Below are positions 59,768 through 60,065 of a DNA stretch of 64,000 nt, piece after piece. A program made the translations under genes and the position numbers. The first letter of the stretch is position 1, and the number at the start of each line of letters is the position of its first letter. The stretch lies in assembly GCA_031701365.1 (NCBI GenBank), contig GCA_031701365.1_4118.1. One strand, written 5' to 3'. Source of the DNA: Escherichia coli (GTDB taxonomy: Bacteria; Pseudomonadota; Gammaproteobacteria; Enterobacterales; Enterobacteriaceae). The notes beneath the pieces were generated by a model. That model was given only the letters and a program-made list of their open reading frames with translations, searched no databases and had not been told where the DNA came from.

Positions 59768-60065
59768 ACTTACATCAAGACGAGAACGTCACTAACCCAT
59801 AGGGTGCACAAATGTAACTGTATAATATTGATCAAAAAATGATCTGATCAATACTTGATCAATTTGCGTAAAGTAGTATAATTCTATGCAGTTGGTTAGA
59901 CGAAAGGTTATGATTAGTAGTGCAAGTGTATAAAAATTTTCATGGTGTATCGTTTCGCACATATGGGGATGAATATGTGGTATCATGTGGATTGGAAAAA
60001 GTAAGAACAAGTAATATTATTGTCGCATTACAGTACTATAGTATTTTTATAATGAGGTTAAAATA

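Follow-up and report, generated by a model that had tools for sequence, protein, structure and literature searches.

Conserved GATC-containing dyads at putative inner promoters of a jumbo coliphage early-gene cassette are candidate operators for a dimeric regulator

The 64,000-nucleotide stretch of DNA analysed in this study (hereafter the window) derives, by its sequence, from an Asteriusvirus jumbo coliphage of the PBECO4/SHEFM2K type. The 1 kb around the GATC cluster considered here is 98-99% identical to Escherichia phages SHEFM2K, CRJP21, SP27 and PBECO4, and ~90% identical to phage 121Q. The matched phages are Asteriusvirus jumbo myoviruses of ~350 kb. In phage records with physical ends, the match is doubled and lies 10-13 kb from the left end, and in phage vB_Ec-M-J the locus is annotated within a 21.5-kb direct terminal repeat, with the site ~12 kb inside. 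The neighbourhood is an array of 40-120-codon genes, every one on the + strand, and almost every gene of the array is preceded by a consensus sigma-70 promoter of a single family (TTGACA-N16-TATAAT, with AGTACTG ahead of the -10 hexamer); this array is an immediate-early region. In Asteriusvirus and RaK2-like jumbo phages, a long terminal repeat holds hundreds of very small early genes that have no assigned function. A literature search on the regulation of these terminal-repeat early genes found consensus promoter predictions alone, and a search for this phage group found no reported binding, transcription-start or methylation data.

The features of the locus are collected in Table 1. The initial annotation placed the GATC cluster in a leader of ~300 nt, free of open reading frames, upstream of a TraR/DksA-like gene. 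The identity of that gene is borne out by its PF01258 match; the leader is occupied in large part by a conserved 48-codon open reading frame (ORF48; PHROG 38664, E = 7e-36) and its truly noncoding part comprises the 185 nt from 59735 to 59919. ORF48 is preceded by a weak Shine-Dalgarno sequence, and the dksA-like gene is coupled to it through the overlapping TAATG. The ORF48 region is open in a single frame across six phages, and its counterpart is annotated as gp293 in 121Q. The protein is 60-65% identical in 121Q-clade phages, where TTG occupies the start column and the replacements are mostly conservative, and pN/pS against the 121Q clade is ~0.37. Weak homologs were identified in Erwinia phage Hallingskeid, where the gene following the homolog is not DksA-like, and in Pectobacterium phage CBB; a protein-database search with ORF48 yielded two clusters only, too few for a deep alignment. 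A paralog belonging to PHROG 9374 lies at 59012-59188 of the window.

Table 1. Positions of repeats, promoters, dyads and genes at the locus (coordinates of the window).
Feature	Position	Strand	Remarks
Left 11-bp direct repeat GTTAAAATAAT	59725..59735	+	Holds stop codon of upstream 65-aa gene
P1, near-consensus sigma-70 early promoter	59739..59767	+	TTGACA, 17-nt spacer, CATAAT, upstream TG
Leader hairpin GACG-AGAA-CGTC (GACGAGAACGTC)	59779..59790	+	Read from sequence
Box AACCCATAGGGTGCACAAATGTAACTG followed by -10-like TATAAT (59821-59826)	59794..59826	+	Putative promoter P2 or leader element
Dyad A	59830..59844	.	GATCAAAAAATGATC; GATC sites 1 and 2
Dyad B	59846..59860	.	GATCAATACTTGATC; GATC sites 3 and 4; PBECO4-clade-specific
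P3, inner sigma-70-type promoter (putative)	59855..59882	+	TTGATC, 16-nt spacer, TATAAT
Degenerate remnant of ancestral downstream dyad (inferred from alignment)	59885..59901	.	TATGCAGTTGGTTAGAC
ORF48, 48-aa protein	59920..60066	+	GTG start; stop overlaps next ATG (TAATG)
Right 11-bp direct repeat GTTAAAATAAT	60057..60067	+	Holds ORF48 stop and AT of dksA-like ATG (60066-60068)
DksA/TraR-type C4 zinc-finger gene, 85 aa	60066..60323	+	PF01258, E = 5.4e-11; PHROG 54, E = 1.8e-18

AlphaFold predicts that ORF48 folds into four beta-strands followed by a C-terminal helix (pLDDT 88), and the best solved-structure matches of the predicted fold are AP2 DNA-binding domains. By predicted-structure similarity, this arrangement of beta-sheet and helix is AP2-like or integrase-arm-like. 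Homology of ORF48 to AP2 received an hhalign probability of 0.4% with no Pfam match, and a profile search of PDB sequences lent the AP2 relationship no support. A fold search of BFVD returned uncharacterised small phage proteins and nothing else.

The two copies of the direct repeat bound a 332-bp block (59725-60056) that holds the promoters, the leader and ORF48. This block is precisely missing from phage phAPEC6, where a single repeat copy remains and the 65-aa gene runs directly up to the dksA-like ATG, and is also missing, judged by coverage, from ph0011 and UE-S1. Since these three phages are viable without it, the whole cassette is dispensable. In addition, some relatives that lack the cassette keep the DksA-like gene; the GATC cluster is therefore part of an accessory cassette with ORF48 and not, as first supposed, of the leader of the DksA-like gene.

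Transcription of the cassette is expected to begin at P1, which scores 11/12 in a promoter scan with its TG included, has an inferred start near 59774 and belongs to the repeat family (D1/D16/D17) that makes up the promoter type preceding most array genes. The leader hairpin appears in both the minimum-energy and the centroid RNA folds and is conserved in the 121Q clade. The box that follows reads ACCCATAGGGTGCAC...TATAAT and belongs to a repeat family (D11) with copies at 58109, 59794 and 62147, and with reverse-oriented copies at 48992, 51464 and 53629 of the window. It is found in phages RaK2, GAP32, CBB, 121Q and Hallingskeid, in every case with a sigma-70-type promoter 20-30 nt upstream, and its TATAAT would be part of a putative inner promoter, P2, with a start expected near 59834. 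A further candidate, P3, scores 10/12 in the promoter scan, with an inferred start near 59889. P2 and P3 are consensus matches in AT-rich DNA; P3 nonetheless looks like a genuine promoter in sequence comparison, as its hexamers are conserved in the 121Q clade (TGGATC and TATAAT) and its spacer has diverged. At the aligned place, Hallingskeid has TTGACT, a 17-nt spacer and AATAAT.

The cluster itself, reported at the outset as four GATC sites within ~31 bp, is present as described, with sites at 59830, 59841, 59846 and 59857 (a 31-bp span). Dinucleotide shuffling of the whole window gave at least four GATC sites in 28 bp in 5 of 1000 trials, and local shuffling of 48-64 kb, and likewise of 56-64 kb, did so in 0 of 1000; the early region is GATC-rich, with 69 sites observed versus 40.5 in shuffles (48-64 kb). 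The genome-wide check of GATC density that had been proposed was carried out on the complete 121Q genome, which contains 620 GATC sites versus 1182 expected (ratio 0.52). No part of the 348.5-kb 121Q genome other than the homologous site (146698-146768) has four or more GATC sites within 100 bp, and simulation of uniform placement in that genome gave P ~0.005 for five sites in 68 bp and P ~0.011 for four sites in 28 bp. The shuffles and the genome-wide test in 121Q together indicate that the cluster is real and not a product of chance; to judge from its sequence statistics and its conservation, it is a conserved, statistically unusual and probably cis-regulatory element.

The arrangement of the sites differs in part from the three TGATCA(A) direct repeats originally described. 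Three TGATCAA copies do exist (59829, 59845 and 59856; three of the seven in the window), but the conserved unit is an inverted repeat, GATCA-N5-TGATC. This 15-bp unit occurs twice, one base apart, as dyads A and B (16 bp centre to centre). Dyad A begins 3 nt past the -10-like hexamer of P2, with its centre at about -52 from the inferred start of P3, and dyad B overlaps the -35 hexamer of P3. Counting the two dyads of the window and seven in relatives, the half-site is GATCA in 18 of 18 half-sites, the base inside each GATC is invariant (A on the left, T on the right; 18/18) and the two GATC sites of a dyad are spaced 11 bp start to start in all lineages. The 5-nt spacers vary: they are AAAAA and ATACT in the window, ATAAA and either AATCT or ATTCT in the leader of the 121Q clade, and AGAAA and ATAAT in Hallingskeid. 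GATCA-N5-TGATC occurs three times in 121Q (348.5 kb) versus 0.13 expected, a ~20-fold over-representation (Poisson P = 4e-4). The third of these dyads lies in the intergenic region upstream of gp467, a gene whose product has no recognisable DNA-binding domain; spacers at this second locus are AAAAA, TATTT and AAAAT. The gp467-locus dyad is kept in PBECO4, phAPEC6, Sharanji and vB_Ec-M-J, lost in UE-S1 and mutated in Turkey5.

The leader is ~78% identical between the PBECO4 and 121Q clades, and comparison across lineages reveals both constancy and turnover of the dyads. PBECO4-clade copies are ~98% identical and were not counted as independent. In a multiple alignment, the box and dyad A hardly change between the Escherichia phages and the Erwinia phage (87% DNA match), a noncoding conservation that exceeds that of the coding sequence, where the ORF48 proteins of Escherichia phages and Hallingskeid are ~36% identical. 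The position of dyad A is filled by GATCAATAAATGATC in 121Q and by GATCAAGAAATGATC in Hallingskeid, and in all three lineages (PBECO4-like, 121Q-like and Hallingskeid) this dyad lies at about -52 from the inferred start of P3. The 121Q clade has, at the place of dyad B, a lone GGATCAA inside the -35 hexamer of P3, and carries its second dyad directly after the P3 -10 hexamer, as TGATCAA(A/T)TCTTGATCA (dyad GATCAA(A/T)TCTTGATC). The second dyad of Hallingskeid, GATCAATAATTGATC, spans the -10 hexamer of its TTGACT-N17-AATAAT promoter. The Hallingskeid layout is that of the 121Q clade: a terminator-embedded promoter, the box, GATCAAGAAATGATC, TTGACT-N17-AATAAT and GATCAATAATTGATC. Because the second dyad of Hallingskeid aligns with the downstream dyad of the 121Q clade, the downstream arrangement is ancestral by this comparison; the PBECO4 clade has lost this dyad and gained a new one over the -35 hexamer, and so still has two. 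The second dyad overlaps the P3 core in each lineage, at the -35 hexamer in the window, at +1 in 121Q and at the -10 hexamer in Hallingskeid, and the distance between dyads (16, 56 and 43 bp) keeps no conserved helical phase.

Located as they are over two putative inner promoters, the adjoining palindromes are most likely bound by a regulator. Half-sites that are fixed, spacers that are A/T-rich and free, a fixed position relative to the promoter, conservation of noncoding sequence and turnover of sites together form the signature of operators. The suggestion in the initial annotation that the repeats could be a regulator operator is therefore supported in outline, by dyads shared across clades, promoter overlap, invariant half-sites and turnover. 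With moderate confidence, and on these sequence features, we interpret the dyads as operators for a dimeric DNA-binding protein; GATCA-N5-TGATC dyads occur in the leaders of two Asteriusvirus clades and of an Erwinia phage whose ORF48 homolog is 36% identical. Weighing against this interpretation are the status of P2 and P3 as consensus matches in AT-rich DNA, the variable helical phase between the two dyads and the dispensability of the cassette. We file them, by their layout, as an apparently undescribed instance of the general class of promoter-overlapping operators. A full-text literature search for TTGATCAA as a binding site gave no relevant match.

Under the operator interpretation, transcription would enter at the strong early promoter P1, pass the conserved box and then reach the two dyads, of which dyad A would cover the putative start region of P2 and dyad B the -35 hexamer of P3. 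That the dyads lie over P2 and P3 points to repression by occlusion: a dimeric protein bound there would exclude RNA polymerase from both inner promoters, and might also hinder read-through from P1. With it in place, expression of the ORF48, dksA-like and acetyltransferase genes would be adjusted or switched off once the first minutes of infection had passed. Alternatively, the site at -52 (dyad A) could activate P3. As each operator contains two GATC sites, Dam methylation by a host or phage enzyme could modulate binding.

Classical repressor and Cro operators of phages are short palindromes over -35 and -10 hexamers and are often autoregulatory. The present locus resembles them in its two dyad-symmetric sites, which overlap core promoter elements and combine fixed half-sites with free spacers, and in encoding a small, putatively DNA-binding protein (ORF48) immediately downstream. 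It differs in that no helix-turn-helix protein is evident here and in that ORF48 and the dyads co-occur imperfectly.

If this interpretation holds, the locus would be a compact module of three stacked promoters, a leader box that crosses genera and two putative palindromic operators, the latter holding, in 121Q, the sole GATC cluster of a GATC-depleted 350-kb genome. The module also encodes, in the 48 residues of ORF48, a confidently predicted fold resembling AP2 DNA-binding domains, and it would control a phage DksA homolog, which may modulate the host RNA polymerase. Should the dyads be read by Fis, SeqA or Dam, expression of the dksA-like gene would be tied to the growth state of the host or to phage replication; should ORF48 read them, the locus would be the first representative of a new family of small DNA-binding proteins in phages. 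The relatives that lack the cassette (phAPEC6, UE-S1 and ph0011) constitute natural controls. The main value of the locus is as a testable entry into the early-gene regulation of poorly studied jumbo phages.

There are several potential readers of the dyads. A phage protein, ORF48 included, is an unlikely but tenable reader, host Fis is about as likely or slightly less so, and what is left falls to some other host factor. FNR (TTGAT-N4-ATCAA) and IHF (WATCAANNNNTTR) were compared by eye and rejected, the former for wrong half-site orientation or spacing and the latter for two mismatches per site.

Fis is abundant in growing enterobacterial hosts and is used by other phages, among them lambda, Mu and P1. 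Two forms of its consensus have been published, GnnYAnnnnnTRnnC (PMC10380432) and GNTYAAAWTTTRANC (PMC6907758). Both GATCAAAAAATGATC and GATCAATACTTGATC fit the first form, as do the seven dyads in relatives (9/9), and the dyads match 11-12 of the 13 specified positions of the second; in the 64-kb window, G.TYA.....TRA.C has four matches, two of which are dyads A and B. In sequence, the dyads are like high-affinity Fis sites, as seen in their 15-bp core, in G at -7 and C at +7, in the Y-R steps at -4/-3 and +3/+4, in T at -5 and A at +5, and in their A/T-rich centre. However, real Fis sites are degenerate whereas the half-sites of the dyads are invariant: positions -6 and +6, which are N in the consensus, are A and T in 18 of 18 half-sites, and position -4 is always C and position -3 always A, which is stricter than the degenerate Fis motif. 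Fis thus leaves unexplained the invariance at -6/+6, of C at -4 and of A at -3, through which a GATC is always present. In addition, two cores only 1 bp apart would be a tight fit for two Fis dimers.

A more specific and distinctly unlikely proposal is that ORF48 is a minimal, stand-alone AP2-like autoregulator that would bind the dyads as a dimer and be gated by N6-adenine methylation of GATC by host Dam and a phage enzyme. If this were true, incoming fully methylated DNA, replicating hemimethylated DNA and unmethylated DNA would give different early-gene outputs, and a jumbo phage would possess a timing switch that is read through methylation. Dyads are found ahead of ORF48 in the two Asteriusvirus clades and Hallingskeid, and there are none upstream of the weak CBB homolog. 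Phages phAPEC6 and Sharanji lack ORF48 and keep the gp467-locus dyad, and Turkey5 has ORF48 and has lost that dyad. We know of no transcription regulator with the AP2-like fold in bacteria or phages.

It is also possible that control at this locus is sensitive to methylation of the GATC sites. In its strict form, this explanation holds that the GATC sites act as such, either because SeqA binds hemimethylated pairs after the first replication or because methylation alters binding of RNA polymerase, and that the inner promoters would consequently be switched in step with replication. We consider it unlikely, although it is the main rival of the operator interpretation. Every half-site of every dyad contains a GATC in a genome that avoids this sequence (the 121Q ratio of 0.52 above), and the pairs spaced 11 bp start to start lie on the same helix face, so that two or more GATC sites on one face within ~3 turns are found in all lineages; pairs at this spacing are ideal targets for SeqA. 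Dam is present in the host, and every Asteriusvirus checked encodes an N6-adenine methylase of the Dam family (PF05869; 121Q gp417, E = 7e-32, with 96% identical copies in PBECO4 and SHEFM2K). A literature search found no methylome. Precedents include sequestration of oriC and of the dnaA promoter, IS10 pIN, P1 cre and SeqA at lambda pR, where it stimulates the promoter. The locus is like Dam/SeqA-controlled promoters in having several GATC sites about one helical turn apart over promoter elements, and in the Dam-type methylases encoded by both host and phage. It differs from them (oriC/dnaA, IS10 pIN, lambda pR with SeqA, pap and agn43) in that the unit is larger than GATC, being a strict 15-bp palindrome rather than two GATC sites at a permissive spacing. 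SeqA and Dam recognise GATC alone, and independence from flanking sequence is not what the dyads show, as their inner flank is invariant (GATC-A ... T-GATC, 18/18); recognition of GATC alone leaves this flank unexplained. We know of no Lrp- or OxyR-equivalent partner protein for the dyads.

The operator interpretation may also be set against an element acting in RNA, in which the dyads would form hairpins in the P1 transcript (GAUCA, a 5-nt loop and UGAUC) or a longer TGATCA-TGATCA stem and could serve, for example, to direct processing or set stability. Provided that P1 is active, its transcript includes the region; an 8-9-bp stem joins sites one and three in the predicted RNA fold, and a palindrome is necessarily self-complementary. 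Against this, the z-score of the leader fold is only -1.9, with 6 of 200 shuffles folding equally well. The stems display no covariation, all nine dyads sharing one sequence, and the identical half-sites point to recognition of sequence rather than structure. The long-range pairing of the window leader is impossible in the 121Q clade. An Rfam scan of 57-64 kb at a cutoff of E = 1 produced no match except a spurious snoRNA one elsewhere. RNA structure was accordingly rejected as the main explanation, on the z-score and on pairings that are unconserved in the 121Q clade, and we regard it as very improbable.

A lack of any function appears highly unlikely as well. The dyads would then be by-products of degenerate -35-like hexamers (TTGATC for TTGACA) in AT-rich promoter DNA that were inherited by descent, and it is true that TTGATC matches TTGACA at 4/6 positions, that one GATC lies inside the P3 -35 hexamer, that the early region is locally rich in GATC and that the near-identical copies of the PBECO4 clade carry no independent weight. 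Against this, the dyads have been kept across lineages diverged to 78% identity in DNA and 36% in protein, their spacers vary around invariant half-sites, one clade has lost and gained a dyad, and the unit is 20-fold over-represented in 121Q. Conservation across genera together with turnover contradicts chance or hitch-hiking.

Barely credible, finally, is a replication origin or packaging signal of the GATC-cluster type; clustered GATC or TGATCA is a hallmark of oriC, P1 oriR and P1 pac, but the origin was rejected on the absence of a DnaA box (TTWTNCACA) within 500 bp (59400-60400) and of a GC-skew switch at 146.7 kb of 121Q, where skew follows gene orientation, and the packaging site on its wrong location, ~12 kb inside the terminal repeat and away from its ends, with the 121Q terminase (2.2-3.9 kb) ~143 kb from the cluster (146.7 kb), and on a cassette that is dispensable. 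In P1 pac, clusters of TGATCA/G hexamers flank the terminase cut inside pacA, and Dam methylation gates cleavage. The present cluster resembles it only superficially, in repeated TGATCA-type hexamers spaced ~7-15 bp apart in a phage genome, and differs in lying in an early-gene leader, at a great distance from the terminase gene and ~12 kb away from the end of the genome, and in being absent from viable relatives. A pattern search of IMG/VR with ATYGATCAANNAATGATC returned 104 stretches, mostly single matches at chance level, and did not discriminate between the Dam and Fis readings. The exceptions were two unrelated viral contigs (L044 and L111), in which ATTGATCAAAAAATGATCAG is repeated 5-6 times in tandem beside terminase and HNH genes, an arrangement counted in favour of the origin or packaging reading. 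The closest TerL relatives of these contigs are an uncultured gammaproteobacterial phage and Pelagibacter phages.

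A conserved leader element, hereafter the box, recurs downstream of promoters in the window, both in the ORF48 leader and elsewhere (see the table). Its sequence is A(A/G)CCCA(C/T)AGGGTGCA, followed after 10-12 nt by a TATAAT-like hexamer, and a sigma-70-type promoter always lies 20-30 nt upstream of it. The box was found in RaK2, GAP32, CBB, 121Q and Hallingskeid (loci L010 and L012-L017), with an intrinsic terminator directly 3' of it in RaK2 (L010) and in contig L017. It may represent a small RNA of ~100 nt, a leader element of the nut/put type, or a promoter recognised by the phage's own sigma-70-family factor (121Q gp167). 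Some intrinsic-terminator hairpins in the window carry a promoter hexamer, as in the example TGGTTGAC-TTCG-GTCAGCCA followed by TTTTGTT. Because the -35 hexamer TTGACT lies inside the terminator stem and a TATTAT -10 follows 17 nt downstream, this is a single fused element in which a terminator is merged with the next promoter, an arrangement kept in Hallingskeid, CBB, GAP32 and RaK2.

Coordinates of the features, in the window unless another sequence is named
Feature	Coordinates	Strand	Remarks
Terminator hairpins with embedded -35	58055-58090, 62098-62130		Intrinsic terminators
Box	58109-58141, 59794-59826, 62147-62179	+	
Box	48992, 51464, 53629	-	
Box variant	51405	+	
ORF48 cassette	59725-60067		332 bp; flanked by 11-bp direct repeat GTTAAAATAAT
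Third GATCA-N5-TGATC dyad	121Q 215908-215922 (L125 15908)		Between terminator and gp467 gene
Tandem repeat arrays	L044 2814-2920; L111 1371-1460		5-6 copies of 20-bp ATTGATCAAAAAATGATCAG

The 48-codon gene upstream of the DksA-like gene, ORF48, lies in a repeat-flanked cassette that phAPEC6, ph0011 and UE-S1 do not have, a pattern of presence and absence that reflects either deletion between the repeats or insertion of the cassette. In the Erwinia phage Hallingskeid, a gene of the ORF48 family adjoins an HNH endonuclease gene. The fold of ORF48 (59920-60066, 48 aa) is confidently predicted as four beta-strands plus a helix, similar to AP2 DNA-binding domains. An (E/M)YVVS(Y/C)G motif is common to ORF48, the nearby 59-aa PHROG 9374 protein (59012-59188) and the RaK2 homolog of the latter; this RaK2 protein was also among the BFVD structural matches (TM 0.78). 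These resemblances suggest a paralogous family of small early proteins that includes ORF48 and the PHROG 9374 protein.

The window as a whole is depleted in GATC (134 observed versus 161-206 expected), and its early/terminal-repeat part (48001-64000), compared with 1-48000, is enriched (69 observed; shuffles gave 40.5 +/- 6). GATC counts per 10-kb bin of 121Q range from 7 to 26 except at 140-150 kb, where there are 49. GCGC does not occur once in the 64 kb of the window (1-64000), where ~46 copies would be expected, nor in the complete 348.5-kb genome of 121Q, where 153 would be. Such a total lack speaks for strong selection against a nuclease specific for GCGC. 121Q has a C5-cytosine methylase gene as well (gp91). 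AGTACT occurs 252 times in the whole window (e.g. at 59753, 60334, 60468 and 61144) versus ~22 by mononucleotide expectation. The octamer palindrome CAGTACTG, expected less than once, has 54 copies, sitting within the early-promoter spacer (AGTACTGTATAAT) and dispersed in coding regions at 7-48 kb. Genome-wide, GTAC is enriched 1.4-fold in 121Q.

Besides the two dyads (15-bp inverted repeats) of the ORF48 leader, a third precedes the gene for gp467 (PHROG 11171) in 121Q. It is kept in several clades with differing A/T spacers (PBECO4 L129, phAPEC6 L128, Sharanji L133), is lost in UE-S1 and in Turkey5 has mutated to GTACAAAAATTGTCA. Unrelated viral contigs of 51-60% GC (L044 and L111; also L108, L072, L029 and L087) likewise contain the motif, within AT-rich islands. 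The L044 and L111 arrays are flanked on one side by a terminase small-subunit/nuclease gene pair and on the other by HNH and TerL genes.
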